This document shows, piece after piece, positions 1 to 14,849 of a DNA stretch of 14,849 nt. Position 1 is the first letter of the stretch. Every line of letters starts with the position of its first letter. The stretch is taken from contig JBNKUM010000052.1 of NCBI GenBank assembly GCA_050298595.1, forward strand, positions 1-14,849. Direction: 5' to 3'. Made by a program: the position numbers and the translations under genes. The notes beneath the pieces are model-generated. The model was not told the origin of the DNA and did not search any database. It worked only from the letters and a program-made list of their open reading frames with translations. The stretch is from Gammaproteobacteria bacterium. Its GTDB lineage: Bacteria; Pseudomonadota; Gammaproteobacteria; GCA-001735895.

Positions 1-445
1 GAAAGCCTTCATGAATCTCGGCTATGGGAAAACAGCCAGTTCACCCATTATTGCTCAGGATCTTGCCATGCTGCGCAACAATGACAGGTTCTTAATTAAC
101 CGCGATAGACTGCTGGACGCAGCAATACAGGCTGTTAACAACCCTGTAGAGCAACAGCAGTTTGAACGCCCTGCACTCAAAATGCCGGGTGAAGAACTAT
201 TTAATGAGATGCATCAATGGCTGGTAAAGGCACAACAAAAAGGAATATTCTACCCGCATGATGTTGTCGTCGGCACAGAAATCGCTCGAATCGTTACTGG
301 TGGTGAGATCCCTGCCGGAACCGTCTGGCATGAACAGGATTTTTACGATGCAGAACGTCGTGCATTTATAACACTGGCTTCAACACAGGCCACACGAGAC
401 CGTATTAACTCGATGCTAGATGGCGCAGGAAGTATAAGAAACTAA
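1..445 (+). CDS. 3' end of a 3-hydroxyacyl-CoA dehydrogenase/enoyl-CoA hydratase family protein (FadN-like), 5'-truncated by the window edge
   Basis: The frame is open from the window start (aaa gcc ttc atg...). The C-terminus ERRAFITLASTQATRDRINSMLDGAGSIRN and the HDVVVGTEIARIVTGG segment resemble FadN-type bifunctional beta-oxidation enzymes. The next gene is an acyl-CoA ligase. Confidence 0.8.
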   Translation, partial: KAFMNLGYGKTASSPIIAQDLAMLRNNDRFLINRDRLLDAAIQAVNNPVEQQQFERPALKMPGEELFNEMHQWLVKAQQKGIFYPHDVVVGTEIARIVTGGEIPAGTVWHEQDFYDAERRAFITLASTQATRDRINSMLDGAGSIRN

Positions 446-483
446 TGAGCAATCTATAAGTACGCGTCAGACCATCAGTAAAA

Positions 484-489
484 GAGGAG
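484..489 (+). promoter_or_regulatory. Shine-Dalgarno site for the acyl-CoA synthetase
   Basis: GAGGAG lies 6 nt upstream of ATG 496. Confidence 0.7.
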
Positions 490-495
490 CACAAA

Positions 496-2133
496 ATGAC
501 AATCGATTACGACCTGTTGTCAAAAAATGATGCAAACTTTATCTCACTGACCCCCATATCTTTTCTTCATCGCAGTGCAGATATCTATCCTCAGCGTGAA
601 TCCATTATCTATAACCAGAGACGATATACCTGGGCACGAACGCGCGAAAGATGTGTCCGTATAGCGTCTAGCCTGCATAGTCGTGGCATCGGTAAAAATG
701 ATACCGTGTCTGTATTCGCCTTCAACACGCCGGAAATGGTCGAAAGTCATTTCTCCATTCCTATGGCAGGTGCAGTATTAAATACCATCAACACCAGACT
801 CGATGCCGAAACAGTAGCTTATATTATCGACCATGGAGAATCCCGCATGGTCATGGTAGATCGTCAGTTATTGCCGGTATTACAAAAGGCTCTTGAAACT
901 GCCAACGGTTCACCCGAGATTGTGCTTATCGATGATGCTGATGCCGATGAGAAACCGGAATTACCTGGAGATATTACATTCACTCTATACGAAGATCTGG
1001 TCGATCAGGGAGATAAAAACTTTGACTGGCAGGGACCGGAAGATGAATGGCAGGCTCTGGCACTCAATTACACATCAGGTACTACTGGGCATCCAAAAGG
1101 AGTGGCATACCATCATCGTGGATCCTACCTGATGACCATGGGTACAGTTATTTCATGGTCCCTGCACTCTCATCCTGTTTACCTGTACACCGTACCCATG
1201 TTCCATTGTAACGGCTGGGGACATGCATGGACCATGGCTGCGGTTGCCGGAACCATAGTGTGCATCAGAGCCTTTTCACCAAAGCGCCTGTTCGACCTCG
1301 TTGAACAACACAGGGTTACTCATTTTGGAGGCGCTCCGATCATTCTCAATATGTTGGCGAATGCCTCTCCTGAAGAGCAGAAGAAATTCGACCACACTGT
1401 ACATGTTATGACCGCAGGTGCCCCTCCTCCAGCTAAGGTACTCGAAAGCATGAACCAGTTTAATTTTGAAGTGATTCATGTATACGGATTGACTGAAAGC
1501 TATGGTCATATCCTGCACTCAGCGGTTCAGGATGACTGGGCAGAGCAAAGTATCGAAAAACAGGCCGAGTTAAAGTCTCGACAGGGCGTACGCTTCGCCA
1601 TGACGGAAGCAGTAGATGTCATCAACCCCGAATCAGGTGAATCAGTACCCTGGGATGCGGAAACCATTGGTGAAATCGTGATCCGTGGCAATACCCTTAT
1701 GAAGGGTTATCTAAAAGATATTGAAGCCACTGCAAAGGTATTTAAAGATGGCTGGTTTTTTAGCGGAGACCTGGCTGTTATCCACGAAGATGGTTACATT
1801 CAGATCAAAGACAGGGCCAAGGATATTATCATCTCTGGTGGCGAGAATATTTCATCGGTTGAGATAGAAGGTATCCTGTATAAACACCCTTCTGTAGGAG
1901 AAGCAGCTGTAGTTGCTATGGGCGATGAGAAATGGGGCGAAGTACCCTGCGCATTCATCGAACTGAAATCAGGGCAACATGTAAGCGAGGAAGAGCTGAT
2001 AGACTTCTGCGCCGACCATATGGCGCGTTTTAAGAAACCCAAGAAAGTGGTGTTTGGAGAATTACCTAAAACAGCCACAGGCAAGATCCAGAAGAATGTA
2101 TTACGTGAACGTGTGAAAGATACGGCTGAATAG
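496..2133 (+). CDS. Acyl-CoA synthetase / AMP-binding enzyme (short/medium-chain fatty acid-CoA ligase type)
   Basis: 545 aa with the ANL motifs YTSGTTGHPKG, YGLTE, SGDL, DRAKDIIISGGENI and PKTATGKIQK. Confidence 0.93.
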   Translation: MTIDYDLLSKNDANFISLTPISFLHRSADIYPQRESIIYNQRRYTWARTRERCVRIASSLHSRGIGKNDTVSVFAFNTPEMVESHFSIPMAGAVLNTINTRLDAETVAYIIDHGESRMVMVDRQLLPVLQKALETANGSPEIVLIDDADADEKPELPGDITFTLYEDLVDQGDKNFDWQGPEDEWQALALNYTSGTTGHPKGVAYHHRGSYLMTMGTVISWSLHSHPVYLYTVPMFHCNGWGHAWTMAAVAGTIVCIRAFSPKRLFDLVEQHRVTHFGGAPIILNMLANASPEEQKKFDHTVHVMTAGAPPPAKVLESMNQFNFEVIHVYGLTESYGHILHSAVQDDWAEQSIEKQAELKSRQGVRFAMTEAVDVINPESGESVPWDAETIGEIVIRGNTLMKGYLKDIEATAKVFKDGWFFSGDLAVIHEDGYIQIKDRAKDIIISGGENISSVEIEGILYKHPSVGEAAVVAMGDEKWGEVPCAFIELKSGQHVSEEELIDFCADHMARFKKPKKVVFGELPKTATGKIQKNVLRERVKDTAE

Positions 2134-2517: not shown

Positions 2518-4017
2518 TCAGGCGGCTGCTTCCGAGTGAGGCGCGTTGGATGACATCAATAAAACCTGCCTGATCACTCTAATGATCTGGTCAATTTCTT
2601 CAGCGGTAATATTAAAATGAGGTGTGAAACGTAAAGCGTTTTTTCCACCATGAATAACGCCCACGCCCATTTTACGCATCCTTTCTTCTATTGAATCCTT
2701 ACCAAAACACTTTAAGCCCGAATGCAGCTTAAAGGATACTAGTAACCCTGTTCCCTGTACGTCAGTAATCAATCCATTCATTTCCTGTGATAGCTGTTGC
2801 AGGCGATCCACAAATTCTCTGCCTTTGAGCTTTATATTCTCTCTTACATCAGGCGTTATCATAGACAGAACCTGCGTTGCTACATCCAGAGCACGCGGGT
2901 TTGTGGTCATGGTGTTTCCATAAACGCCTTTTTTATAAAGTGCCGCAGCTCGTTTGTTCATGGCTAATACGGATAAAGGATACTGACCCGCATTCAGCGC
3001 CTTGGACCAGGTTTCCATATCCGGTGCCTGTATGCCTTCAAACCCAGGGTAATCTACAATAGACAGGCAGCCATGAGCACGCAGGCCAGCCTGTATAGAA
3101 TCAACCAGTAATAAAGCCCCATGCTGGCTGGTTAATTCACGGGCCAGATCATAAAAATCACGCTCAATGGCCAGTCCTGGGTTGCCTTCACCCATAACCG
3201 GTTCGATAAACATGGATTCAATAAAAATGCCATCCAGCCTCGCCTGTTCAAAAACCTGGCGTAACTGTTGTTGGTTATTGGGTTCAACCGTCAACAGATT
3301 GTCTCTGTCTCTAAAGCTGGCCAGATGTTTTTTATAAACAGATTGAGATGAGTCTGAGTATTGAGCGGGCCTGTCGGTACGGCCATGAAATCCGCCTTTA
3401 AGGGCAATATGTTTAATGATCTTTTTGGCATGTGGACCATCGTTTTCAGTAGACAGAGCGGCATGAATATCAGAGATTCTCGCAGCAACAGAAACCGATT
3501 CCGAACCTGAATTAACAAAAAGAAATCCCTCGTAAGGACAACAACCGGAAGAATGTCCGACTTCATGTTTCAATGCCTCAATCAAGCGATACTGTGAAAA
3601 ACTGGCTGTCATCACATTGGCCATTACCTGATGTTGATTCATGGCCTGCAATACGGGCTCGGGAGAATGACCAAACCCGAGCATTCCATAGCCCCCGTTA
3701 TCGTGAATCACTGCACCTTTGGCTGTAATAATCCAGGGACCGCGAGCAGCCAGCGCAACAAAGGGATTCACCACATCTTCATCATAAAAATTGACGATTC
3801 CTTTTTGCATAGCCCTTACTTGCATAGACTCGTCCAGTCTCATCAATGCAGGCTGTTGTTGTGATAACTCCAGAAAAACCTGATAAGCATCATTAACGGC
3901 ATCAACCAGAGAGGGATGGCTGACAGCAAACCGATTGATCACCTCATCATCCAGACCGACTGTTTCCGCTTGCCCGGAAAAATCACGCATCGCTTTTAGT
4001 TTTTGTATTACATCCAT
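2518..4017 (-). CDS. lat: Class-III PLP aminotransferase, L-lysine 6-aminotransferase (LAT) type
   Basis: 499 aa with motifs VNFY..D.V.PFVALAARGPW, GGYGMLGFGH, NSGSE, FHGRTDRPA, EPVMGEG, DSIQAG, SKALN (PLP Lys) and YGNTMTTNPRALDVA. These closely match my recollection of the Flavobacterium lutescens / Xanthomonadales LAT. AmaB and AmaA nearby support the call. Confidence 0.8.
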   Translation of the reverse strand: MDVIQKLKAMRDFSGQAETVGLDDEVINRFAVSHPSLVDAVNDAYQVFLELSQQQPALMRLDESMQVRAMQKGIVNFYDEDVVNPFVALAARGPWIITAKGAVIHDNGGYGMLGFGHSPEPVLQAMNQHQVMANVMTASFSQYRLIEALKHEVGHSSGCCPYEGFLFVNSGSESVSVAARISDIHAALSTENDGPHAKKIIKHIALKGGFHGRTDRPAQYSDSSQSVYKKHLASFRDRDNLLTVEPNNQQQLRQVFEQARLDGIFIESMFIEPVMGEGNPGLAIERDFYDLARELTSQHGALLLVDSIQAGLRAHGCLSIVDYPGFEGIQAPDMETWSKALNAGQYPLSVLAMNKRAAALYKKGVYGNTMTTNPRALDVATQVLSMITPDVRENIKLKGREFVDRLQQLSQEMNGLITDVQGTGLLVSFKLHSGLKCFGKDSIEERMRKMGVGVIHGGKNALRFTPHFNITAEEIDQIIRVIRQVLLMSSNAPHSEAAA

Positions 4018-4136
4018 ATCCGGCTCACATTTATAGATTGAATGCTTATTAAATCATTGTTAGTAGTCAATTCGTAGTTATATACTAACCAAAGTTTGTA
4101 GCTAACCTATGCAATTTAACTATATAAACAAACATA
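4018..4136. promoter_or_regulatory. AT-rich divergent promoter region between lat and the Lrp/AsnC regulator
   Basis: 119-bp divergent intergenic region with inverted repeat GTTAGTA (4059-4065) / TACTAAC (4083-4089) and recurring GTAGYYA units (4063, 4074, 4098). Confidence 0.5.
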
Positions 4137-4568
4137 ATGACTAATTACGATAAAGATAGAGAGCTTCTTGCGCTGCTCAAAGATAATGCGAGAATGCCCA
4201 TCAGCGAGCTTGCGCGAAAACTAAATGTATCTCGTACGGCTGCTCAAGCCCGCCTTAGCCGACTTGAACGTAGCGGGGTCATTAACGGCTATACCATCAG
4301 GCTATCTGACAGTTATCAGGAAAATAACATCAAGGCCATTATCATGATTAAATTACCGCCTAAAAAGCGTGCAAAGGTTGAACAGACCTTGAAAGCAATC
4401 CCCGAATTAACCTCGCTTTATTCTATTAGTGGCACTTTTGATTTGTCTGCTATCGTCACGGCACCATCGGTTCCTGAACTGGATAAGATCATCGATCAAA
4501 TAGGCGCTTTGGAAGGCGTAGAAGAAACTCAATCTTCAGTTATTCTTTCAACCAAGATCGATCGTTGA
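4137..4568 (+). CDS. Lrp/AsnC family transcriptional regulator
   Basis: 143 aa. N-terminal HTH DRELLALLKDNARMPISELARKLNVSRTAAQARLSRLERSGVINGYT, plus a C-terminal RAM domain (SISGTFDL...). Confidence 0.95.
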   Translation: MTNYDKDRELLALLKDNARMPISELARKLNVSRTAAQARLSRLERSGVINGYTIRLSDSYQENNIKAIIMIKLPPKKRAKVEQTLKAIPELTSLYSISGTFDLSAIVTAPSVPELDKIIDQIGALEGVEETQSSVILSTKIDR

Positions 4569-4681
4569 AATCGTCTTCTAATGACTCATGGAACCATGGC
4601 TCAGCAGCATTAAAGAGATTCAACAACAGCCTGCTATTGATGGATTCTATTTCTTATAAAACGAAATATTATCATTAGTAC

Positions 4682-4696
4682 ATGACAAAAACTCAT
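4682..4696. promoter_or_regulatory. Putative LysR-type binding box (ATGA-N7-TCAT, T-N11-A)
   Basis: ATGAcaaaaacTCAT dyad about 60 bp upstream of the LysR start, fitting the T-N11-A rule. Confidence 0.55.
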
Positions 4697-4756
4697 ACCC
4701 ATCAACATGGACATCAGTTATATTAGAGACTTCTGTTCACCTTTACTAAACTGCTC

Positions 4757-5662
4757 ATGGGTATGAACCAAAGAAGGCTACTGCCGTCAACCAGTATGCT
4801 GTCCGCGTTTGAATCAGCTGCCAGGCTGGGTAGTTTTTCGCGCGCGGCGTCTGAATTAAACCTCACACAAGGCGCTATCTCTCGACAGGTTCGAGCCCTT
4901 GAAGATCAGCTTGAACTCGAACTGTTTGATCGTACGCCTCAACATGTCTGCCTGACACACGCAGGGGTTCAATATGCAAAAGAAATCGCAACAGCCCTGA
5001 ATATCATCAGAACCGCCACCCTAAACATTATTACCAATCATGACGGTGGTGAATTCAGGCTCTCAATTCTACCGACCTTCGGCACCAAATGGCTGATTCC
5101 TCGACTTTCAGGCTTTCTTACACAAAATCCCGATATCAACATTAGCTTCAAGAGTCATTTCGCTCCATTTGATTTCAATACAGAAAACGTGGATGCCGCT
5201 ATTCATTATGGACAACCCGATTGGCCCGATGCGGAATGTAGCTTTTTAATGAATGAAACCGTGGTCCCTGTTTATGCACCGTCTTTGGAGAAAAAGTATG
5301 TGATAGCCCAGCTAGAGGATTTCAGGAATATCCCCCTGCTGCATCTGTCCACTCGAGATGATCACTGGACTAAATGGTTTCAGTTAAACGGAATACAAAA
5401 CGAAATATCACAGGGTATTACGTTCGAACAGTTTTCTTCAGTTGCACAAGCTGCCTGCGCAGGCCTGGGGGTTGCCCTCATGCCCAGACTGTTTGTTGAA
5501 AATGAACTGAAATCAGGGGCCTTGAAAACATTTGAGGCCGGAGAGTGTAAGAGCTCATCGTCCTATTATTTCGTCACTCCCAAGCACAGAAGTACCTACG
5601 CCCCGGTTAGAGCGTTTCGAGAATGGATCGTAGAAACCGCCAGGGATTATTACATTTCGTAA
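4757..5662 (+). CDS. LysR family transcriptional regulator (GcvA-like)
   Basis: 301 aa. HTH RRLLPS..MLSAFESAARLGSFSRAASELNLTQGAISRQVRALE, then PTFGTKWLIPRL and AACAGLGVALMP. The start may be ATG 4763. Confidence 0.95.
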   Translation: MGMNQRRLLPSTSMLSAFESAARLGSFSRAASELNLTQGAISRQVRALEDQLELELFDRTPQHVCLTHAGVQYAKEIATALNIIRTATLNIITNHDGGEFRLSILPTFGTKWLIPRLSGFLTQNPDINISFKSHFAPFDFNTENVDAAIHYGQPDWPDAECSFLMNETVVPVYAPSLEKKYVIAQLEDFRNIPLLHLSTRDDHWTKWFQLNGIQNEISQGITFEQFSSVAQAACAGLGVALMPRLFVENELKSGALKTFEAGECKSSSSYYFVTPKHRSTYAPVRAFREWIVETARDYYIS

Positions 5663-5772
5663 TACCCTTTTGAAAATCTGTCGTTAGCACCTTGTGCGTT
5701 TTTTAGCTTTACTTGTCATACATTCAGATCGCAATCAACGGTTGCGTCTTTTTCACCCGGTGAGGAAAAACA

Positions 5773-7458
5773 ATGTTAGACAAGGTAAGCGCTCAGGAGA
5801 TTAAAGTTGATGAAGTCATGCGTAAAGCTGACTTATCCAGTGAATCAACAGGGATTGATATTGAAACAGTCATGCATGAAGGCGGCTACCCGGAAGAGGC
5901 GCAGCAAATCGCGTTAAAAGAAAAGTTGTTACCTTCAGGGCTGGTGAATCGTTTACACAATATTTACCCCCACTATTCCATCCTCAGTCGTACAAGCAGG
6001 CCGATGTTTACCGAGCGTGAAAACTACACCGGATTGAAGGGCTTTCGTACCGTTTGTGCAACGCTTGCAGAACACGGTATTGACATCGGCCATATTGATG
6101 AGCGCGAGCTTTTTGTTGAGGTTTACCGTTTTCTGGCAACACGCCATACATTGAATAGTATTGACTGGGAAAACTACAGCAGCGATAGCGTATTTCAGCT
6201 GGTTTTCCCCCAACCGGGGATGATTCGCCAGGATATAGTAGATAAATATATTGCTGCCGGAGACAAACAATCTCGTACTCAGGTTGCGCTGGACTATATG
6301 CAGGAAACCAACCCGCATGACGGTAACCAGCTACTGAACAAACCCTGGTTTAAGAATGAGGATGGTGTACTTGAAGTGCTAGCAGGAAGCCAGCATAAAT
6401 ACCCGCAGACACAGCTAATTTTTGATAAATCAACGCAGCACTGTTTCTCTTTCTGTACCTACTGTTTTCGTCATGCTCAGGTACGCGGTGACGAAGATAT
6501 GTTTCTGCAAAAAGACATCAATCAAATTCACGAATACATGCGTCAGCATAAAGAAATCACCGACATGTTGATTACCGGCGGTGACGGTGGGTATATGCCT
6601 GCTGACCGGCTGATGCAATACGTTGAGCCACTATTCACCGATCCAGAGCTCATGCATATCCGCACTGTGCGTCTGGCAACACGCGCTTTAACCTTTCAGC
6701 CTGAACTGGTTCTGACCGCTAAATACGAAAAAATGCTGGCCGTTTTCGACAAGCTTCATGAAAACGGAATTCAACTGGCCTGGATGGCGCATTTCTCAAC
6801 ACCAAAAGAATTACTTAACCCGATGACTATTGCAGCAGTACGTCGTCTGCAACGACACGGAGTCGTCATTAGAAGTCAAAGCCCGATGATGAAACACATC
6901 AGCCTGTTCCCGAATGTCGATGGCAGCATCGATATCGATAAGTCTGCCCAGAACTGGATTGATCTGGCTCATATCCTTTGTACACTATCGATAGGCTTCC
7001 ACTCTATGTACTGCGCTCGTCCAACCGGTGAGCATCATTACTACACTGCGCCTTTAGCGGATGTGGTGAAGATTTTTAACAAAATCTACCGATCCCTGCC
7101 CTCTATCTCACGCCCCTCTCGCCATATCTCCATGACGACTTCGGCGGGCAAATTATCTTTGATGGGTCTGTCTGAAATCAATGGCGAAACCGTGTTTGCG
7201 CTGAAATTCAACGAAGCGCGCAACATGCAATGGATCGATAAAGTTTTCCATGCCAAATACAACCCAGACACCAATGATGTCAATCTACTTAATCCCATCG
7301 AAGGCGATAGCTTCTTCTTTGAAAACGAACTGCAACAGATTGAAGATGAACTGGGTGATTCACTAAAAGAAGCCATGGCAAGTGCGACCAGCGTTCATAT
7401 GGATGAAACTCTGCAGGAAGATCAATCCGCAGAAACAGATTTTCCAGCCGCTTTCTAA
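5773..7458 (+). CDS. KamA-family radical SAM / PLP-dependent 2,3-aminomutase (substrate probably not lysine; candidate 2-aminoadipate 2,3-aminomutase)
   Basis: 561 aa. HKYP is followed by CFSFCTYCFR (C224/C228/C231, R233). Further motifs are ITGGD, RTVRLATR, AHF..P.EL, RSQSP and SAGK460 (PLP-Lys equivalent). RBS GAGGA lies upstream. Confidence 0.88.
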   Translation: MLDKVSAQEIKVDEVMRKADLSSESTGIDIETVMHEGGYPEEAQQIALKEKLLPSGLVNRLHNIYPHYSILSRTSRPMFTERENYTGLKGFRTVCATLAEHGIDIGHIDERELFVEVYRFLATRHTLNSIDWENYSSDSVFQLVFPQPGMIRQDIVDKYIAAGDKQSRTQVALDYMQETNPHDGNQLLNKPWFKNEDGVLEVLAGSQHKYPQTQLIFDKSTQHCFSFCTYCFRHAQVRGDEDMFLQKDINQIHEYMRQHKEITDMLITGGDGGYMPADRLMQYVEPLFTDPELMHIRTVRLATRALTFQPELVLTAKYEKMLAVFDKLHENGIQLAWMAHFSTPKELLNPMTIAAVRRLQRHGVVIRSQSPMMKHISLFPNVDGSIDIDKSAQNWIDLAHILCTLSIGFHSMYCARPTGEHHYYTAPLADVVKIFNKIYRSLPSISRPSRHISMTTSAGKLSLMGLSEINGETVFALKFNEARNMQWIDKVFHAKYNPDTNDVNLLNPIEGDSFFFENELQQIEDELGDSLKEAMASATSVHMDETLQEDQSAETDFPAAF

Positions 7459-7487
7459 CAATAGTGAGCCAATATAGATAACTAATC

Positions 7488-8198
7488 ATGATAGATAAAC
7501 GCATATCTACCGTTGCTGAAGCCGTTGCCGATATTCCTGATGGTGCCACCATCATGATTGGCGGTTTTGGTGAAGCCGGCAGCCCTACCGAACTGATCCA
7601 TGCGCTGATCGACCAGGGAGCTAAAGAGCTGACCGTCATCAATAACAATACCGGCAATGGTGAAATTGGTCTGGCCGCACTCATTGGCAACGGCCAGGTG
7701 AGGAAAATGATCTGTTCCTACCCTCGCTCCAGTCACTCGAAGGTTTTTCCAGTGTTATACCGTAATGGAGACATTGAGCTCGAAATCGTTCCACAGGGCA
7801 CTCTGGCTGAACGTATTCGTGCAGGTGGTGCCGGCATACCCGCGTTTTATACCGCCACAACGGTGGGAACGGTACTGGCCGACGGAAAAGAAAAACGTGA
7901 ATTCGATGAGCGCGAGTACGTACTGGAATATGCGCTTAAGGCTGATTTTGCGCTGATTAAATGTGAACGAGCAGACCGCCTCGGTAACCTGATCTACAAC
8001 AAAACTGCACGTAATTTTAATCCGATTATGTGTACTGCTTCGACAACCACCATCGTACAGGCACACAAGATTGTAGAGCTTGGTCAGCTTGATCCAGAAG
8101 CAATCATTACGCCCAATGTTTTCGTTAATCGAATTGTTGAAGTGGAATCGCCTCTGATTGAATCTAAACTGATTGCCGAGGGAGTGAGCTACCCATGA
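7488..8198 (+). CDS. pcaI: 3-oxoadipate (3-oxoacid) CoA-transferase subunit A
   Basis: MIDK.I...AEAVADIPDGATIMIGGFG.AG.P.ELI.ALIDQGA, NNTGNG, CSYPR and PQGTLAERIRAGGAGIPAFYT are typical of PcaI. Confidence 0.88.
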   Translation: MIDKRISTVAEAVADIPDGATIMIGGFGEAGSPTELIHALIDQGAKELTVINNNTGNGEIGLAALIGNGQVRKMICSYPRSSHSKVFPVLYRNGDIELEIVPQGTLAERIRAGGAGIPAFYTATTVGTVLADGKEKREFDEREYVLEYALKADFALIKCERADRLGNLIYNKTARNFNPIMCTASTTTIVQAHKIVELGQLDPEAIITPNVFVNRIVEVESPLIESKLIAEGVSYP

Positions 8199-8866
8199 AT
8201 GAAGTCGCACAACAAATAGTTAAAGGCTGGTCGCGCGAACAGATGGCCGAACAGGTTGCTCTGGATATACCTGATGGCTCCTACGTCAACCTGGGTATCG
8301 GCATTCCTGAGCTGGTGGCAAAGTTTGCTCCCGAGGGACGTGAGTTCATCTATCACACCGAGAATGGCTTATTGGGTATGGGGCCAGAGCCAGCCACCGG
8401 TGAGCAGGATCATGAACTGATCAATGCTGGCAAAAAAGCCGTCACCATCATTCCTGGCGGCTGTTATTTCCACCATGCCGATAGCTTCACCATGATACGC
8501 GGTGGTCATATCGATGTCTGTGTGCTGGGAGCGATGCAGGTATCAGAAAAAGGCGATCTGGCTAACTGGTCGACTGGAGCGCCCGATGCCATTCCTGCCG
8601 TTGGAGGGGCAATGGATCTGGTCGCAGGTGTCAAAAACATATACGTCATAACCCAGCACACAACCAAAAATGGTGAGCCGAAGATCGTCAGGCAATGCAG
8701 CTATCCACTAACAGGCCCCGAAGTTGTTTCGCGCATCTACACTGATTTGTGCGTCATAGATGTAAGCGATCAAGGTCTTAAGGTATTGAAACTTGCCCCC
8801 GGTATCAGTTTTGATGAAGTCTGCGACAAAACCGATGCGCCATTAATTCCTCCCAAAGGAGTATAA
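8195..8866 (+). CDS. pcaJ: 3-oxoadipate (3-oxoacid) CoA-transferase subunit B
   Basis: YVNLGIGIP, HTENG (catalytic Glu), LINAGK, MIRGGH and GDLANWSTG..DAIPAVGGAMDL. ATGA overlap with subunit A. Confidence 0.88.
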   Translation: MNEVAQQIVKGWSREQMAEQVALDIPDGSYVNLGIGIPELVAKFAPEGREFIYHTENGLLGMGPEPATGEQDHELINAGKKAVTIIPGGCYFHHADSFTMIRGGHIDVCVLGAMQVSEKGDLANWSTGAPDAIPAVGGAMDLVAGVKNIYVITQHTTKNGEPKIVRQCSYPLTGPEVVSRIYTDLCVIDVSDQGLKVLKLAPGISFDEVCDKTDAPLIPPKGV

Positions 8867-8869
8867 GAA

Positions 8870-10180
8870 ATGAATTCCCCAATCAGTGCCGCTCTGTTTG
8901 AACGTGCACAAAAAGTCCTTCCAGGCGGGGTAAGCAGAGATACGCTGAAGCGTGGAGCACATCCCCTTTACGTAAGCCATGGCAAAGGTTGCATGGTTAC
9001 CGATGTCGATGGTGTTGAGCGCATCGATTTTGCCAACAATATGGCTTCCCATATCCACGGACATGCATTTGGACCCATCGTCGAAGCAGTCTCCAGGCAA
9101 CTACAACTTGGCACAGCCTTTACCATGGCGACAGAAGCAGAAGTACTGTTTGCAGAACAGCTATGTTCTCGCTGTGACAGCTTCGATAAGGTCCGCTTTA
9201 TGAATTCAGGCACCGAGGCCGTGATGGCCGGAATGAAGGCAGCACGAGCTTTTACCGGCAAACACAAAATTGCCAAGGTCGAAGGTAGCTACCACGGCGC
9301 CTACGACTATGCTGAAGTCAGCCAGGCTCCAACTCCCGGCAACTGGGGGTCACTGGATCATCCCAATTCGGTGCCACTAGCACAGGGGACGCCTAAATCG
9401 GTTGCTGAAGATATGGTGATCCTGCCCTTCAACGAGCCCGCCAAAGCCCTTGCACGGCTAGAGCAGCATAAAGATGAAATCGCCTGCGTGCTTATTGATC
9501 CTGTACCTCATCGCATCGGTATGTCTCAGGTTAACAGTGAATTTGTTGAGGCAATCGATCAATGGTGTAAAGCCAATAATTCATTATTCATGTTCGATGA
9601 AGTCATCACCTTCCGTACCGAATTTGGTGGTGCGCAACAACGTTTTAAGGTCACGCCAGATCTAACCTCAATGGGTAAAATGATCGGTGGTGGTTTTCCG
9701 GTCGGGGCACTGGCTGGTCGAGATGAGGTGATGCAAGTATTCAGCAATGGACGCCTGCCCCACTCAGGCACTTTTTCAGCCAACCCAGTTACCATGACAG
9801 CAGGTCGTGTTGCGATGGAATATTATGACCAGCAGGCCGTTGCCCGACTCAACCAACTGGGCGATTATGCTAGGGATTGCCTGAGGTCGGCGATTCAAAC
9901 CGCCGATGTCGCCGCAAGCGTAACGGGCGCAGGCTCTTTGCTAAGGCTGCACATGAAGCCAGAGGTTCCTGCTAACTTTCGCGAAGCACATACAAACAAC
10001 ATTGAAAAACAGGCACTCACCCAGTTCATTAATGATTTGTATGATGATGGCATCATGATGATCCATACCGGGGCAGCAGCGCTTTCAACAGCTATGGGTG
10101 AAGCAGAAATCGACCGTCTGGCCGAAGCTGTGCTTAAATCCTTACGTAATATCAAACCACTACTGACGCAGGCAGCATGA
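8870..10180 (+). CDS. Class-III PLP aminotransferase, glutamate-1-semialdehyde aminomutase-like fold (probable beta-amino acid transaminase)
   Basis: 436 aa with LPGGVSR, NSGTEA, GSYHG, FDEVITFR, GKMIGGGFPVGA (PLP Lys) and HSGTFSAN. It lacks the HemL GGVNSPVRA motif. Confidence 0.85.
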   Translation: MNSPISAALFERAQKVLPGGVSRDTLKRGAHPLYVSHGKGCMVTDVDGVERIDFANNMASHIHGHAFGPIVEAVSRQLQLGTAFTMATEAEVLFAEQLCSRCDSFDKVRFMNSGTEAVMAGMKAARAFTGKHKIAKVEGSYHGAYDYAEVSQAPTPGNWGSLDHPNSVPLAQGTPKSVAEDMVILPFNEPAKALARLEQHKDEIACVLIDPVPHRIGMSQVNSEFVEAIDQWCKANNSLFMFDEVITFRTEFGGAQQRFKVTPDLTSMGKMIGGGFPVGALAGRDEVMQVFSNGRLPHSGTFSANPVTMTAGRVAMEYYDQQAVARLNQLGDYARDCLRSAIQTADVAASVTGAGSLLRLHMKPEVPANFREAHTNNIEKQALTQFINDLYDDGIMMIHTGAAALSTAMGEAEIDRLAEAVLKSLRNIKPLLTQAA

Positions 10181-11385
10181 TGACTGAAGCCTATATATGT
10201 GATGCCGTACGTACCCCAATTGGTCGTTATGGCGGTAGTCTATCCTCTATACGTGCAGATGACCTGGGCGCCTTGCCGCTTAAGGCTTTGATGCAAAGAA
10301 ATCCTGACATGGACTTGCGCAGTATCGACGACGTAATCTTTGGATGTGCCAATCAGGCCGGTGAAGACAATCGAAATGTTGCGCGCATGTCCTCTCTGCT
10401 GGCTGGATTACCGGTCGATGCCTCCGCGATGACCATCAACCGACTTTGTGGTTCTGGTATGGATGCCGTGGGTACCGCAGCGCGCGCTATCAAGTCTGGT
10501 GATACACAGCTAATGATTGCCGGTGGTGTAGAAAGCATGACTCGTGCCCCTTTTGTTTTACCCAAGGCAAACGCGGCTTTTTCCCGCAGCAACGAGCTAT
10601 ACGACACGACCATGGGCTGGCGCTTTGTCAACCGGTTAATGCAACAGGAGTATGGTGTTGAATCTATGCCGGAAACAGCAGAAAACGTGGCCGAAGAATT
10701 TTCTATCTCACGCGCAGACCAGGATCTGTTTGCCTATCGCTCTCAAATGAAGACTGCCCGCGCTCAGGATGCCGGTATCCTAGCTGAAGAAATCATCCCG
10801 GTATCCATTGAGCAACGCAAAGCCGAGCCAATTATTTTTGATACCGATGAACACCCTCGTTCGGATACTAAGCTGGAAAAACTGGCTACCCTGAAAGCCC
10901 CCTTTCGTGAAGGTGGTTCTGTTACAGCGGGCAATGCCTCCGGCATCAACGATGGTGCCTGCGCTATTATCATCGCGTCAAAATCTGCGGCAGAGAAAAA
11001 TATGCTAACGCCCAAAGCTCGAATCGTCGCGATGGCATGTGCGGGTGTACCGCCCCGCATTATGGGGGTCGGCCCCATTAAAGCGGTGCAAAAAATCATG
11101 CATCAAACCGGTTTAACACTAACCGATATGGATGTCATTGAACTGAACGAGGCTTTTGCGGCTCAAGCCCTGGCATGTACCCGTGGTCTGGGTCTGGCTG
11201 ATGATGACGCTCGAATCAACCCGAATGGCGGTGCTATTGCACTGGGTCATCCTCTGGGTATGAGTGGAGCTCGTCTGATCTCTACAGCGACTTATCAGCT
11301 GCAGCGCACACAGGGACGATATGCCTTGTGCAGTATGTGTATTGGCGTTGGCCAGGGCATTGCAATCATCCTCGAACGTATTTAA
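10177..11385 (+). CDS. pcaF: 3-oxoadipyl-CoA thiolase (PcaF/PaaJ family)
   Basis: RTPIGRYGG, GCANQAGEDNRNVARM, NRLCGSG (catalytic Cys), DTTMGWRFVN, SMPETAENVA, NEAFA, GHPLGMSG and CIGVGQG. ATGA overlap with the upstream gene. Confidence 0.92.
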   Translation: MMTEAYICDAVRTPIGRYGGSLSSIRADDLGALPLKALMQRNPDMDLRSIDDVIFGCANQAGEDNRNVARMSSLLAGLPVDASAMTINRLCGSGMDAVGTAARAIKSGDTQLMIAGGVESMTRAPFVLPKANAAFSRSNELYDTTMGWRFVNRLMQQEYGVESMPETAENVAEEFSISRADQDLFAYRSQMKTARAQDAGILAEEIIPVSIEQRKAEPIIFDTDEHPRSDTKLEKLATLKAPFREGGSVTAGNASGINDGACAIIIASKSAAEKNMLTPKARIVAMACAGVPPRIMGVGPIKAVQKIMHQTGLTLTDMDVIELNEAFAAQALACTRGLGLADDDARINPNGGAIALGHPLGMSGARLISTATYQLQRTQGRYALCSMCIGVGQGIAIILERI

Positions 11386-11412
11386 TTTAACACCCTAACT
11401 CAGGAAAAAATT

Positions 11413-12915
11413 ATGTCTTATTCTGAAATTTTTAAAAACCTTGGTTTTGAATCGAGTGAATACCAGAGCGGTACTTTAAGTGTTCATTCCCCAATCGATG
11501 GAACTCTTATTGCGAACGTACCCGAGATCAGTTCGCAAGAAATGGAGGCTACTATTGAGCGATCCAGAGTCGCATTCGAAGAATGGAAAAGCGTACCCGC
11601 ACCCCGTCGAGGCGAGCTGGTGAGATTACTCGGCGAAGAATTGCGTAAATCGAAGGATGATCTTGGCAAACTGGTTACCCTGGAATGTGGAAAAATCTAC
11701 ACCGAAGGCCTGGGCGAAGTTCAGGAAATGATAGATATCTGTGATTTTGCCGTCGGACTTTCACGTCAGCTCTACGGTCTGACCATCGCATCCGAACGTC
11801 CTGGACATTCTATGCGTGAAACCTGGCATCCTCTTGGCCCGGTCGGGGTGATTAGCGCGTTTAACTTCCCGGTTGTCGTTTGGTCATGGAACACCGCAAT
11901 TGCCCTGGTTTGTGGCAACAGCTTAATCTGGAAGCCATCTGAAAAATCGCCATTGACAGCCATGGCCTGCGCAAAAATTCTCGAACGTGCTTTGGCCCGT
12001 TTCGGTGAGGCACCTGCAAACCTTCACCAGCTAGCCATAGGCGGACGTGAAGTCGGTGAAACCCTGGTAGCAAGCAACAAGGTCGCCCTGATCAGTGCAA
12101 CCGGCAGTACTCGCATGGGCAAGGCTGTTGGTCCTAAGGTTGCCGAGCGCTTCGGTCGCTCAATCCTTGAGCTGGGTGGTAACAATGCAATGATCGTGAC
12201 AGCTTCCGCTGATCTTGATATGGCCGTGCGCGCCATCCTCTTTAGTGCAGTCGGTACCTGTGGGCAACGCTGCACATCCCTGCGTCGCCTCATCGTACAC
12301 AAAGATGTTAAAGATCAACTGCTACCAAAAGTCAAAAAGGCTTACGCAAGCGTCAACATCGGTAATCCGCTTGATGGCGATAATCTGGTAGGCCCTCTGA
12401 TCGATGAGGATGCATACAAGGCTATGCAAAATGCCCTGCAAAATGCACAAAGTGAAGGCGCTACTGTTACGGGTGGTAGACGTACATTACTCGCCGAATA
12501 CCCAGAAGCCTATTATATCGAACCGGCCGTTGTCGAAATGCCGAGCCAGAGCGAAGTGGTCAAAAATGAAACCTTTGCCCCGATTCTGTATGTCATGGAA
12601 TACGAAGACCTTGATGATGCCATTCATATGCAGAATGATGTCCCGCAAGGCCTCTCCTCCTGCATCTTTTCAACCGATTTGCGTGAAGCTGAATACTTCA
12701 TCTCCGCAACAGGCTCCGATTGTGGTATTGCCAACGTGAATATCGGTCCCAGTGGCGCTGAAATCGGTGGAGCCTTTGGCGGTGAAAAAGAAACCGGCGG
12801 TGGTCGGGAATCTGGTTCAGATGCGTGGAAAGGCTATATGCGTCGGCAGACAAATACGGTAAATTACTCCCGAGAACTCCCATTAGCTCAGGGAGTGGAA
12901 TTTAATCTGGATTAA
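11413..12915 (+). CDS. amaB: ALDH7-family aldehyde dehydrogenase: piperideine-6-carboxylate / 2-aminoadipate semialdehyde dehydrogenase
   Basis: PAPRRGELVR, GEVQEMIDICDFAVGLSRQLYG, ELGGNN (ALDH7 signature), GTCGQRCT (catalytic Cys) and GAEIGGAFGGEKETGGGRESGSDAWK. Confidence 0.9.
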   Translation: MSYSEIFKNLGFESSEYQSGTLSVHSPIDGTLIANVPEISSQEMEATIERSRVAFEEWKSVPAPRRGELVRLLGEELRKSKDDLGKLVTLECGKIYTEGLGEVQEMIDICDFAVGLSRQLYGLTIASERPGHSMRETWHPLGPVGVISAFNFPVVVWSWNTAIALVCGNSLIWKPSEKSPLTAMACAKILERALARFGEAPANLHQLAIGGREVGETLVASNKVALISATGSTRMGKAVGPKVAERFGRSILELGGNNAMIVTASADLDMAVRAILFSAVGTCGQRCTSLRRLIVHKDVKDQLLPKVKKAYASVNIGNPLDGDNLVGPLIDEDAYKAMQNALQNAQSEGATVTGGRRTLLAEYPEAYYIEPAVVEMPSQSEVVKNETFAPILYVMEYEDLDDAIHMQNDVPQGLSSCIFSTDLREAEYFISATGSDCGIANVNIGPSGAEIGGAFGGEKETGGGRESGSDAWKGYMRRQTNTVNYSRELPLAQGVEFNLD

Positions 12916-12927
12916 TTAGGGCCTGTA

Positions 12928-13075
12928 CTGAATGGCACTTACTTAAGGGCAAAATGTCATCGCGAGCGTCAGCGCGGCGATCTCTAACCTTGTCGAAGCC
13001 TCACTGACGAAGAGATTGCCGCGTCGCAAGCTCCTCGCAATGACCGCATATCAGCCTTAAGTAAGTGCCATTCAG
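12928..13075. mobile_element. 148-bp MITE-like element with perfect 21-bp terminal inverted repeats and an internal palindrome
   Basis: CTGAATGGCACTTACTTAAGG (12928-12948) is the exact reverse complement of CCTTAAGTAAGTGCCATTCAG (13055-13075). The element has no coding capacity. Confidence 0.75.
12956..13044. repeat. Internal GTCATYGCGAG...CTCGCAATGAC palindromic repeat (resembles widespread RPE-like elements)
   Basis: GTCATCGCGAG (12956-12966) pairs with CTCGCAATGAC (13034-13044) with one mismatch. CGCGGCGATCTCT (12973-12985) pairs with AGAGATTGCCGCG (13011-13023) with one G-T pair. Confidence 0.7.
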
Positions 13076-13124
13076 GTCTGTTCGGTGTTAACACGTATTA
13101 ACAGGACCCAGGACGAAGTACGGT

Positions 13125-14405
13125 ATGACAACATTCAACGAGAAAAATTTATGGCGCGATAGCGCCCAGAATATCAACAGCTATACCGCTCTGGAGCAGG
13201 ACATAGATGTTGATGTGGTGATTATCGGTGGAGGCTTTAGCGGCCTGTCTGCGGCCTTGCGCCTGGCCGAAAACAAACACAGTGTTGCCGTGCTGGAAGC
13301 CCATGACATTGGTTATGGGGGCAGCGGACGCAATGTTGGACTGGTTAACGCCGGGCTATGGTTGAAGCCGGATGAGATAACGCAGCATATGGGGCAGCAG
13401 TATGGTGATCGACTCATCCACTTTTTGGGTAATGCACCGCAACAGGTATTTAAGATCATCGAAAAATATGGCATTGACTGCGAAGCACGGCATAACGGTA
13501 CGCTGCACTGTGCTGATAGTGAAAAAGCAAGAAATGAGCTGTTTCAACGCCAGCAGCAATGGTCAAAGTATGGGGTTTCGCTTGATTTACTCAGCCAGAA
13601 CGAAACAGAGCGATTAACCGGAACAGACAAATTCTGTGCTGCGTTGCATGATAAGCGAGCGGGAACTATTCAGCCTTTTAGTTACGCCTGTGGTCTGGCA
13701 CAGAATGCATCGGCTCTAGGGGCTTCTATCTTTTGTAATAGCCCCGTGCTTTCGGTTTCACGACAGGGCTCCAACTGGCAGGTCAAGACAGCCAGAGGCA
13801 GTGTCACTGCGCAAAAGATCATATCTGCTACCGGTACCTACGGCCAGAACACAGCAGACTATGAAGTACCAAAGACTACGGCGCTATACTTTTTCCAGAT
13901 GGCGACCGAACCCCTGAGCGATGCTTTACAAAAGGAAATACTACCCGAAAAGCATGGTGCCTGGGATACCCGGCAAGTTCTCTCCTCATTTCGAATGAAC
14001 GATGAAGGGCGTATGATTATCGGTAGTATTGGCAATCTGGATAATGCCTCATATGACGTTCATAGAGCCTGGGCCAGCCGTAAATTAGGTCAACTCTACC
14101 CACAGCTGAAAGGTGTGCCATTCACGCATGAATGGTACGGCAGGATCGGACTGACCAATAACAATATTCCACGACTAGCTCAGCCCCATCCCGACTGGTT
14201 ATCGATATGGGGATACAACGGCCGTGGTATAGGCCCCGGCACGGTGTTTGGACGTCTGCTCGCTGATCTGCTCATGTCTGGTAGTGTCGATGTCGAGCTT
14301 CCACTTCCGTACAGTAAACTCCAGGCTGAAAAATTTATCGGTCTGCAAAGCTTTGCCATCGAATTTGGCGCAACTGCCTACCATGCAGGGAAGGCTCGTT
14401 TTTAA
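13125..14405 (+). CDS. amaA: FAD-dependent oxidoreductase, DadA/DAO family; probable L-pipecolate oxidase/dehydrogenase
   Basis: DVVIIGGGFSG (FAD binding), GGSGRNVGLVNAGLW, DKRAGTIQP and GYNGRGIGPGTVFG. It follows amaB, as in known pipecolate clusters. Confidence 0.78.
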   Translation: MTTFNEKNLWRDSAQNINSYTALEQDIDVDVVIIGGGFSGLSAALRLAENKHSVAVLEAHDIGYGGSGRNVGLVNAGLWLKPDEITQHMGQQYGDRLIHFLGNAPQQVFKIIEKYGIDCEARHNGTLHCADSEKARNELFQRQQQWSKYGVSLDLLSQNETERLTGTDKFCAALHDKRAGTIQPFSYACGLAQNASALGASIFCNSPVLSVSRQGSNWQVKTARGSVTAQKIISATGTYGQNTADYEVPKTTALYFFQMATEPLSDALQKEILPEKHGAWDTRQVLSSFRMNDEGRMIIGSIGNLDNASYDVHRAWASRKLGQLYPQLKGVPFTHEWYGRIGLTNNNIPRLAQPHPDWLSIWGYNGRGIGPGTVFGRLLADLLMSGSVDVELPLPYSKLQAEKFIGLQSFAIEFGATAYHAGKARF

Positions 14406-14704
14406 TTAACATAGCTCTGTAGCAAAATCATGTTAAGTCATTTCTTATGGATACACTCACCCGACAAAGTCGATTCTTGGTTTACCTAAAAGTCGGATTA
14501 TTTTTGTTTTTCTAAAGGATAAAGATATGAACATGATTATTGAAACTACTAACCTGAATTTACGGTTCGAAATAGCAAAAAGCTGACATTTTAATGTTTA
14601 TCTCAGATATCTGCTATCAACCCTAAGTTGCCGTTTAGGAAACATAAAAGTGAGCTGTAATACTCGAAAAATACTTGATCATAAATCGAAGACCTGACCA
14701 TACA

Positions 14705-14849
14705 TTTTCCGTTATTGTCTCAAATACGTTTCAAGAAGCTGAACCCTTGATTTCTAGATTCTCGCTTAGGAATGTCAATAAACCGCGATCTGTCCCCTAT
14801 TATTGCTATTTCAGCTCAGATATCAGAGGCGGCTCCGGTGACCATATAC
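14705..14849 (-). pseudogene. Possible degraded short-chain dehydrogenase (SDR) N-terminal remnant
   Basis: The minus frame from 14848 reads YMVTGAASDI*AEIA...IDIPKRESRNQG...KRI*DNNGK. This resembles the SDR VTGAASGIGAEIA Rossmann motif, with in-frame TGA at 14816-14818 and 14720-14722. Confidence 0.4.

Follow-up and report, generated by a model that had tools for sequence, protein, structure and literature searches.

Why should a bacterium keep, in one tightly packed gene run, a relative of the radical S-adenosylmethionine (SAM) lysine aminomutases, a transaminase, the genes for the last steps of the beta-ketoadipate pathway, and amaB, a gene of lysine and pipecolate catabolism? The question is raised by contig JBNKUM010000052.1 of a Gammaproteobacteria bacterium (assembly GCA_050298595.1), which we analysed over its entire 14,849 bp (the window) and which belongs to a 5.49-Mb genome in 119 contigs. 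Our answer, to which we give a probability of roughly one half, is that this run of genes would degrade 2-aminoadipate by way of 3-aminoadipate and 3-oxoadipate, as had been put forward in a preliminary description of the locus.

An operon and a proposed route

Genes were assigned to families with Pfam and with curated NCBIfam models and their cut-offs. Those that carry the argument, all on the plus strand, are:

5773-7458, plus strand: divergent KamA-like radical-SAM enzyme of 561 residues with a CxxxCxxC motif; 72.8 bits on the KamA family model TIGR00238, whose cut-off of 199.2 is not reached
7488-8198, plus strand: 3-oxoacid coenzyme A (CoA)-transferase subunit A (PcaI/ScoA family); TIGR02429, 353.8 bits against a cut-off of 128.5
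8195-8866, plus strand: 3-oxoacid CoA-transferase subunit B (PcaJ/ScoB family); TIGR02428, 294.3 bits against 243.55
8870-10180, plus strand: class-III aminotransferase of 436 residues, GSAM/beta-transaminase branch; PF00202, 201.3 bits
10177-11385, plus strand: 3-oxoadipyl-CoA thiolase PcaF; TIGR02430, 702.5 bits against 597
11413-12915, plus strand: AmaB, L-piperideine-6-carboxylate/2-aminoadipate-semialdehyde dehydrogenase; NF050084, 826.6 bits against 730

From the aminomutase gene through pcaI, pcaJ, the transaminase gene and pcaF to amaB, the junctions are a 29-bp gap, a 4-bp overlap, a 3-bp gap, a 4-bp overlap and a 27-bp gap. The list of open reading frames (ORFs) returns all five lengths exactly as first described, together with the coordinates of ten genes, and this arrangement suggests that the genes between 5773 and 12915 form one operon. 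A scan for promoters and terminators gave no more sites than in shuffled sequence and no clear terminator inside the operon.

Within the proposed route, AmaB would oxidize piperideine-6-carboxylate to L-2-aminoadipate, which is the established chemistry of its family, the substrate being supplied in the window by an AmaA-like oxidase and perhaps by a second, 499-residue transaminase. The KamA-like enzyme, using radical-SAM and pyridoxal phosphate (PLP) chemistry, would then move the amino group from C2 to C3, converting 2-aminoadipate to 3-aminoadipate, and the transaminase of the GSAM/beta-transaminase branch would remove the beta-amino group to leave 3-oxoadipate. By known chemistry, PcaIJ would activate 3-oxoadipate with succinyl-CoA, and PcaF would cleave the product to succinyl-CoA and acetyl-CoA. 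The net result would be the conversion of 2-aminoadipate to succinate and acetyl-CoA without decarboxylation.

We compared 80 loci from species-representative genomes, whose aminomutase orthologues are 58-83% identical. The orthologues are found in Gamma- and Alphaproteobacteria, Rhodocyclaceae, metagenome-assembled genomes (MAGs) labelled Myxococcota, SAR324, Bacteroidota, Ignavibacteriota, Balneolota, Gemmatimonadota and Sumerlaeota, and the hosts are largely marine or sediment bacteria. Colinearity was counted in those 64 loci whose sequence extends 6.2 kb or more past the aminomutase start; pcaI, pcaJ, the aminotransferase gene and pcaF lie behind the aminomutase gene, colinear and on the same strand, in 42 of them, and a partial module is seen in 11 more (53 of 64 with at least part of it). 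The other 11, mainly Colwelliaceae, have no partner within 7 kb, and in that family the partners can be 8-10 kb off. Apart from a LysR regulator, nothing further is conserved around these genes. Judged from gene order, the KamA-like gene, pcaI, pcaJ, the aminotransferase gene and pcaF are a self-contained, mobile five-gene module, to which amaB and the feeder genes are lineage-specific additions.

The lower end of the module resembles the last segment of the beta-ketoadipate pathway, with PcaF over its equivalog cut-off and a two-subunit PcaIJ encoded by overlapping genes; unlike that pathway, it has no ring-cleavage or lactone genes alongside, and an amino acid rather than an aromatic ring would be the source of its 3-oxoadipate. 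PcaF is the only protein over the TIGR02430 cut-off in the window genome, scores well above its own scores on acetoacetyl-CoA thiolase models, and counts the Pseudomonas putida beta-ketoadipyl-CoA thiolase (6pca-6pcd) among its best solved relatives. In 45 of 50 module-bearing genomes a thiolase exceeds the same cut-off (650-744 bits against 597), usually as a single copy at the module position. A profile search of the window genome gave no pcaH match and no PcaD over its cut-off, and PcaD exceeds its cut-off in only 2 of the 50 module-bearing genomes; our genome samples include many incomplete MAGs, in which 'no match' does not equal absence. Because PcaF is single and lies in the module, pcaH gave no match and PcaD none over its cut-off, and PcaD is rare among the carriers, pcaIJF would not serve aromatic catabolism here, and on this genomic evidence they are not a remnant of an aromatic pathway in the window genome. 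The best-supported intermediate of the predicted route is 3-oxoadipyl-CoA.

The 436-residue transaminase had been described as a beta-type enzyme, and the solved structures bear this out. Its closest solved relative is 6k8h (E = 9e-106), followed by ForI (6ssd), then by GSAM enzymes and by 6iz9, 2yku and 4ao9, each named beta-transaminase or beta-phenylalanine aminotransferase; the beta-type relatives as a group span E values from 9e-106 (6k8h) to 1e-53. 6k8h is described as the omega-transaminase of Sphaerobacter thermophilus, used on beta- and gamma-amino acids. The module enzyme is thus placed with the beta-amino-acid transaminases of the GSAM branch (6k8h first, Mesorhizobium 2yku, Variovorax 4ao9). 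The known substrates of those enzymes are beta-amino acids of aromatic or simple aliphatic type, whereas the module enzyme would act on the dicarboxylic 3-aminoadipate. Among curated models the nearest are those for GSAM, all of them below cut-off; GSAM itself (HemL) was considered as an identity and rejected on the cut-off of TIGR00713 (324 bits against 527.3).

The KamA-like enzyme and its substrate class

Against the models for lysine, arginine and glutamate aminomutases and for EpmB, the 561-residue protein gives 48-67 bits, where the cut-offs are 369-650 (for glutamate 2,3-aminomutase, TIGR04368, 58.2 bits against 650, not reached), and Pfam gives a marginal Radical_SAM match (E = 0.0013). 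A HMMER profile alignment to the lysine 2,3-aminomutase (LAM) of Clostridium subterminale (KamA; 2a5h) covers a core of about 270 residues with an E value of 1e-37. In this alignment C224, C228 and C231 of the CxxxCxxC motif match LAM C125, C129 and C132, R233 matches R134, and R416 takes the place of D293. An ungapped register of 18 residues beyond the last HMMER-aligned residues, which is an alignment only, pairs S453 with D330 and K460 with K337.

These positions are strongly conserved. All 76 orthologues have C224, C231, R233, R416 and K460, and 75 have C228 (the remaining one has an X). Position 453 is Ser in 66 and Thr in 10, K460 lies within a conserved GK motif, and a GGD motif is also invariant. 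Across phyla, little or no variation is seen at 157 of the 561 positions. An Asp at the position of D293, and another just before the GK motif, are present in canonical KamA-type proteins of the same genome set (L088 and L090) and in the EpmB of the window genome.

In LAM, we take D293 and D330 to hold the epsilon-ammonium group of lysine, R134 to bind the carboxylate and K337 to form the PLP aldimine. The glutamate 2,3-aminomutase is said, in work attributed to Ruzicka and Frey in 2007, to have Lys and Asn in place of the two LAM Asp residues; no protein exceeds the TIGR04368 cut-off for that enzyme in the 50 module-bearing genomes. Because Arg and Ser or Thr replace both LAM Asp residues, the substrate of the module enzyme is probably acidic, with its side-chain carboxylate bound, rather than lysine. 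The protein itself is probably a divergent, putatively PLP-dependent relative of the KamA family.

The comparison with that family (LAM, AblA, EpmB and the arginine and glutamate aminomutases) can be set out as follows. The CxxxCxxC and GGD motifs, the Arg two residues past the third Cys and, on the ungapped register, a Lys at the putative PLP position are shared. Unlike its relatives, the module enzyme has 561 residues (LAM has 416), scores 48-73 bits against cut-offs of 199-650, and carries Arg and Ser or Thr for the two Asp; it also stands in a catabolic context with pcaIJF, whereas the family is familiar from lysine fermentation, osmolyte synthesis and the modification of EF-P. Relative to LAM, about 100 extra residues are found at the N-terminus and about 100 at the C-terminus. 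Homologues align only from about residue 26-30, and the ATG at 5773 is possibly not the true start, later in-frame Met codons being present.

More than 1,300 database proteins match the 561-residue protein. Those with names among the best 120 listed relatives are called 'hypothetical protein', 'Radical SAM protein' or 'lysine 2,3-aminomutase', and in the ESM Atlas the homologue P0074 falls only among 'hypothetical protein' and lysine-aminomutase-like clusters. Among the 41 distant relatives in alignment A1, 23 have an Arg at the position of LAM D293. Of 400 genomes sampled from the window's class, 44 carry a paralogue that stands alone, has about 450-470 residues, is 34-39% identical and falls below all KamA cut-offs (for example, L085 8190-9572); the same 400 genomes hold no orthologue of the aminomutase besides that of the window's own genome. 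Four paralogue loci were inspected and have no pcaIJ, aminotransferase gene or pcaF nearby, and one of the paralogues sits among uvrD, glmS, glmU and atpD.

Weighing 2-aminoadipate against other substrates

The link to 2-aminoadipate comes from amaB. Its product exceeds the cut-off in 17 of the 50 module-bearing genomes, and in 7 of these 17 the gene is no more than 10 kb from the module. With a chance expectation of 0.5%, the binomial tail for this adjacency is about 1e-12, a value that is indicative only, the genomes being related; the placement of amaB beside the module in genomes that have both is far above chance. In a rapid maximum-likelihood phylogeny of the aminomutase, starred branches require at least five changes of the label 'adjacent to amaB', and the gene orders differ.

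The company that amaB keeps in these loci also varies. L010 has a four-gene run of aminomutase, aminotransferase, amaB and a saccharopine/lysine-dehydrogenase-like gene, and the same dehydrogenase-like gene, with Pfam saccharopine-dehydrogenase domains and 3abi as its best structure match, is found in L006 and L049. In L050, from SAR324, amaB is accompanied by a DadA-like dehydrogenase, a PRK06148-like aminotransferase and a polar-amino-acid ABC transporter, and L066 has a glutamate-family dehydrogenase directly upstream. Relatives of the PRK06148 type are presumably hydroxylysine kinase/phospho-lyase enzymes that yield 2-aminoadipate semialdehyde. We conclude that the neighbours of amaB-linked modules are different ways to make 2-aminoadipate semialdehyde, each brought beside the same module. 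The PRK06148-like gene (L050 2-1225) lies at a contig edge and matches the C-terminal 395 of 1015 positions of that model, which describes the fusion of a kinase with a class-III aminotransferase-like domain.

Several observations weigh against 2-aminoadipate as the substrate. First, 33 of the 50 module-bearing genomes have no amaB over its cut-off, among them all tested Shewanella, Photobacterium, Colwellia, Litorilituus and Pseudoalteromonas. In one order, represented by 251 genomes, 18 have the aminomutase and 7 of these have amaB, as do 66 of the other 233 (one-sided Fisher p = 0.24, likewise indicative only), and there is no genome-level signal of co-occurrence between the two genes in that order. 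The synteny expected at the outset, of the KamA-like gene, pcaIJ, the aminotransferase gene, pcaF and amaB, holds for the colinear core and fails for amaB, which is found in just 7 of the 80 related loci; the AmaA-like gene and the gene for the 499-residue aminotransferase are found in none. Secondly, the aminomutase residues alone separate neither 2-aminoadipate (C6) from glutamate (C5) nor either of them from other acidic amino acids; the roles given above to R134, D293, D330 and K337, and to the Lys and Asn of the glutamate enzyme, are background from the literature, and the match of D330 to S453 is that of the ungapped 18-residue register. Thirdly, TIGR02429 and TIGR02428 are subfamily models that also cover ScoAB, the nearest solved structures of PcaI are succinyl-CoA:3-ketoacid CoA-transferases, and by these models a 3-oxoadipate transferase cannot be told from one for acetoacetate. 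Finally, an aerobic exit from 2-aminoadipate is already present in the window genome. HglS (2-oxoadipate dioxygenase/decarboxylase) is encoded on contig C33 (670 bits against 550), followed after 3 bp by a YdiJ-like D-2-hydroxyglutarate dehydrogenase of 967 residues (C33, about 43.8-48.1 kb; L083 7786-12111); this pair is the known aerobic exit, and the genome of the closest relative (G401) also has HglS.

The proposal of 2-aminoadipate, 3-aminoadipate and 3-oxoadipate as successive intermediates therefore comes through in part: the acidic-substrate residues and the adjacency to amaB in 7 of 17 genomes speak for it, and the 33 of 50 genomes that lack amaB, with the missing enrichment at the level of the order, speak against it. 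It also gives the simplest account of the data. In some loci, that of the window among them, AmaB would couple the module directly to a local lysine, pipecolate or hydroxylysine branch; hosts without amaB would have to obtain 2-aminoadipate by uptake or from an unrecognized dehydrogenase.

The leading competitors of this reading are similar chemistry on glutamate or a different acidic amino acid, and a role other than that of an aminomutase for the KamA-like protein. If the module acts on something else, the substrate could be another amino acid, either a longer dicarboxylic one such as 2-aminopimelate or an imported beta-amino acid on which the aminomutase would run from beta to alpha as a side branch, the linkage to amaB then reflecting a shared scavenging regulon. 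The variable flanks of the module name no substrate, a BCCT transporter and a thioesterase precede it in five Motiliproteus and Halopseudomonas loci, and thiolases of the PcaF/PaaJ type accept more than one dicarboxylic 3-oxoacyl-CoA. However, no such candidate suits the amaB and lysine-dehydrogenase-like neighbours better than 2-aminoadipate does, and the 157 near-invariant positions of the aminomutase across phyla point to one conserved substrate; we regard this possibility as unlikely.

The same chemistry could also be carried out on a further acidic alpha-amino acid, most simply L-glutamate, which would pass through beta-glutamate to 3-oxoglutarate and then, by CoA transfer and thiolysis, to malonyl-CoA and acetyl-CoA, or by decarboxylation to acetoacetate, which would be cleaved to two acetyl-CoA; alternatively, the module could serve catabolism of the marine osmolyte beta-glutamate. 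An Arg at the position of LAM D293 would suit any distal carboxylate, the module does without amaB in 33 of 50 genomes and shows no enrichment with it in the one order, and the PcaIJ models extend to acetoacetate transferases. The hosts are also largely of marine and sediment origin, and beta-glutamate is common in such habitats. We nevertheless consider glutamate improbable, since in 45 of 50 genomes the thiolase exceeds the PcaF cut-off (650-744 bits against 597), the repeated adjacency to amaB and to lysine/saccharopine-dehydrogenase-like genes would go unexplained, glutamate already enters the tricarboxylic acid cycle directly, and the glutamate 2,3-aminomutase model gives only 58 bits against 650.

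A third possibility, quite improbable in our view, is that the 561-residue protein is no aminomutase at all, being either a radical-SAM protein of KamA fold with other chemistry on a compound related to 3-oxoadipate, or non-catalytic. Its scores far below all KamA-family cut-offs, the roughly 100 extra residues at each end and the marginal Pfam match would fit such a protein, but the orthologues all retain the cluster cysteines, the GGD motif, the carboxylate-binding Arg and the Lys at the putative PLP position, and its constant partner is a transaminase of the beta-amino-acid branch, as the product of an aminomutase needs.

The alternative order offered in the preliminary description, in which a lysine 2,3-aminomutase makes beta-lysine that is transaminated at C6 and then oxidized by AmaB to 3-aminoadipate, has lysine in its favour as the best-known KamA substrate and can draw on the second class-III transaminase and the aldehyde dehydrogenase in the window, but it is disfavoured and very improbable: none of the 76 orthologues has the two lysine-binding Asp, which 2a5h, the canonical KamA-type proteins and EpmB all retain, but instead Arg and Ser or Thr, AmaB reaches the cut-off of the piperideine-6-carboxylate dehydrogenase model, and the conserved core contains neither a C6 transaminase nor an aldehyde dehydrogenase, so that this order would be unworkable in most hosts.

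We return, then, to degradation of 2-aminoadipate through 3-aminoadipate and 3-oxoadipate, and to its relation with the HglS route. The locus shares with lysine and pipecolate catabolism in P. putida an AmaB over its cut-off, an AmaA-like oxidase and, elsewhere in the genome, HglS with a YdiJ-like protein; unlike the P. putida route, the operon has an aminomutase, a beta-type transaminase and pcaIJF instead of a 2-aminoadipate transaminase and HglS. The window itself has no gene for HglS or glutaryl-CoA dehydrogenase, and the first description was right in this respect; the impression that the usual exit is missing does not extend to the genome, given the pair on contig C33. No 2-aminoadipate transaminase reaches its cut-off in the window genome (the best gives 448 bits against 650), and for this reason the entry step of the HglS route is without an assigned gene. 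HglS exceeds its cut-off in 1 of the 50 module-bearing genomes, a count that has no background rate and is hence evidence neither way. HglS requires O2, and radical-SAM aminomutases are typically oxygen-sensitive. With the O2-dependent HglS route present in the window genome as well, the module there is most likely a parallel, oxygen-independent exit rather than the only one. That the HglS and module exits serve oxic and anoxic conditions, respectively, is speculation.

More broadly, and with slightly less assurance than we attach to the route in this operon, we propose that the module lets 2-aminoadipate, and with it the carbon of lysine, pipecolate and hydroxylysine, be degraded without oxygen in many bacteria, the hosts ranging from marine Gammaproteobacteria to anaerobic Bacteroidota and Sumerlaeota. 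A new radical-SAM 2-aminoadipate 2,3-aminomutase and a 3-aminoadipate transaminase would supply PcaIJF, 'orphan' pcaIJF genes in organisms that have no aromatic pathway would be explained, and in the present genome the module would be the anoxic counterpart of HglS. If this is true, it is a catabolism of lysine and 2-aminoadipate that conserves all six carbons and does not require oxygen; it would also extend the KamA family to a new class of substrate, and 3-aminoadipate would gain its first natural source and sink. For annotation, it would mean that pcaIJF genes in anaerobes are likely misread as aromatic-pathway remnants, and for biotechnology, the enzymes joining 2-aminoadipate, 3-aminoadipate and 3-oxoadipate would be missing steps in lysine-to-adipate designs.

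A full-text literature search, with subscription journals and supplements outside its scope, returned no account of a 3-aminoadipate route, of a 2-aminoadipate aminomutase or of this gene set. The few articles that mention 3-aminoadipic or beta-homoglutamic acid deal with metabolomics, meteorites or peptides, and one article (PMC7241714) states that enzymes deaminating beta-lysine, lysine or 2-aminoadipate are not known. The route is plausible and apparently unpublished; all of its parts come from known superfamilies, and the novelty would lie in the substrate class of the aminomutase and in the route itself.

Flanking genes of the window and of related loci

The remaining features of the window are:

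2-445: 3' fragment of a FadB-like gene (C-terminal 147 residues), the contig beginning inside the gene
496-2133: acyl-CoA synthetase, PRK08162-type; 828.6 bits against a cut-off of 677
2518-4017, minus strand, divergent: class-III aminotransferase of 499 residues; PF00202, 148.9 bits
4137-4568, plus strand: Lrp/AsnC-family regulator; PF01037 and HTH_24, LysM-like at 99 bits against 180
4757-5662, plus strand: LysR-family regulator (GcvA-like), directly upstream of the operon; PF03466 and PF00126
13125-14405, plus strand: AmaA-like oxidoreductase dependent on flavin adenine dinucleotide; PF01266, 197.8 bits, and NF050086, 472.6 bits against 600

AmaB is present as a single copy over the NF050084 cut-off in the window genome, and the AmaA-like gene lies 209 bp downstream of it on the same strand. 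The AmaA-like protein has the DAO-family fold (PF01266) and, being below the NF050086 cut-off, is a possible L-pipecolate oxidase. The 499-residue transaminase gives 69.9 bits against 520.8 on the lysine 6-aminotransferase model TIGR03251, over its C-terminal half only, and all its NCBIfam matches are below cut-off. Its homologues are proteins of about 500 residues from Gammaproteobacteria, one of which, 61% identical, is named 'Lysine 6-aminotransferase' in UniRef; that one name is the sole support for the label 'lat-like', and the protein could be a lysine 6-aminotransferase. Among the gene names first proposed, those of PcaF and AmaB are upheld by their cut-offs and those of PcaI and PcaJ at the level of the subfamily, whereas the KamA-like, lat-like and AmaA-like proteins all fall short of the relevant models.

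A homologue of the Lrp/AsnC regulator, 60% identical, lies between the aminotransferase gene and amaB in locus L006. In 26 loci the aminomutase gene has as its neighbour a LysR gene of the window's cluster, and in 21 one of a second LysR type. None of the 80 related loci has a counterpart of the FadB-like or acyl-CoA synthetase gene (window 1-2133) next to its module, and both are probably genes of fatty-acid metabolism with no tie to the module. The last 444 bp (14406-14849) contain no ORF of more than 60 residues, and Rfam and transfer RNA scans gave no matches there or elsewhere in the window. Words sampled from the operon region (5700-13000) were found at 22-46% in four runs of one salt-marsh metagenome study, which is a hint of habitat only; among the public runs listed as containing the operon, none was of RNA.

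The flanks of loci without amaB gave no clue to the substrate; they encode Usp proteins, a two-component system, a methyl-accepting chemotaxis protein, a benzaldehyde-dehydrogenase-like aldehyde dehydrogenase, carbonic anhydrase, and an AraC regulator with an MFS transporter. In the Shewanella loci L017, L019 and L025, two or three Usp genes lie just upstream of the LysR gene, and L017 has one more after pcaF; these genes may hint at regulation by stress or anoxia. Five Motiliproteus and Halopseudomonas loci (L042, L048, L051, L055 and L059) have the genes for the BCCT-family transporter and a 4HBT thioesterase immediately upstream of the aminomutase gene, and in the first four of them pcaF is followed by the gene for a protein of 445-472 residues with a class I/II aminotransferase domain, a candidate MocR-type regulator. 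In the closest related locus (L003 2046-7440) the LysR and aminomutase genes are preceded by an rnf-type operon, in which RnfC and RnfD were identified; this operon could provide low-potential electrons for the radical-SAM enzyme, or its placement could be coincidental.

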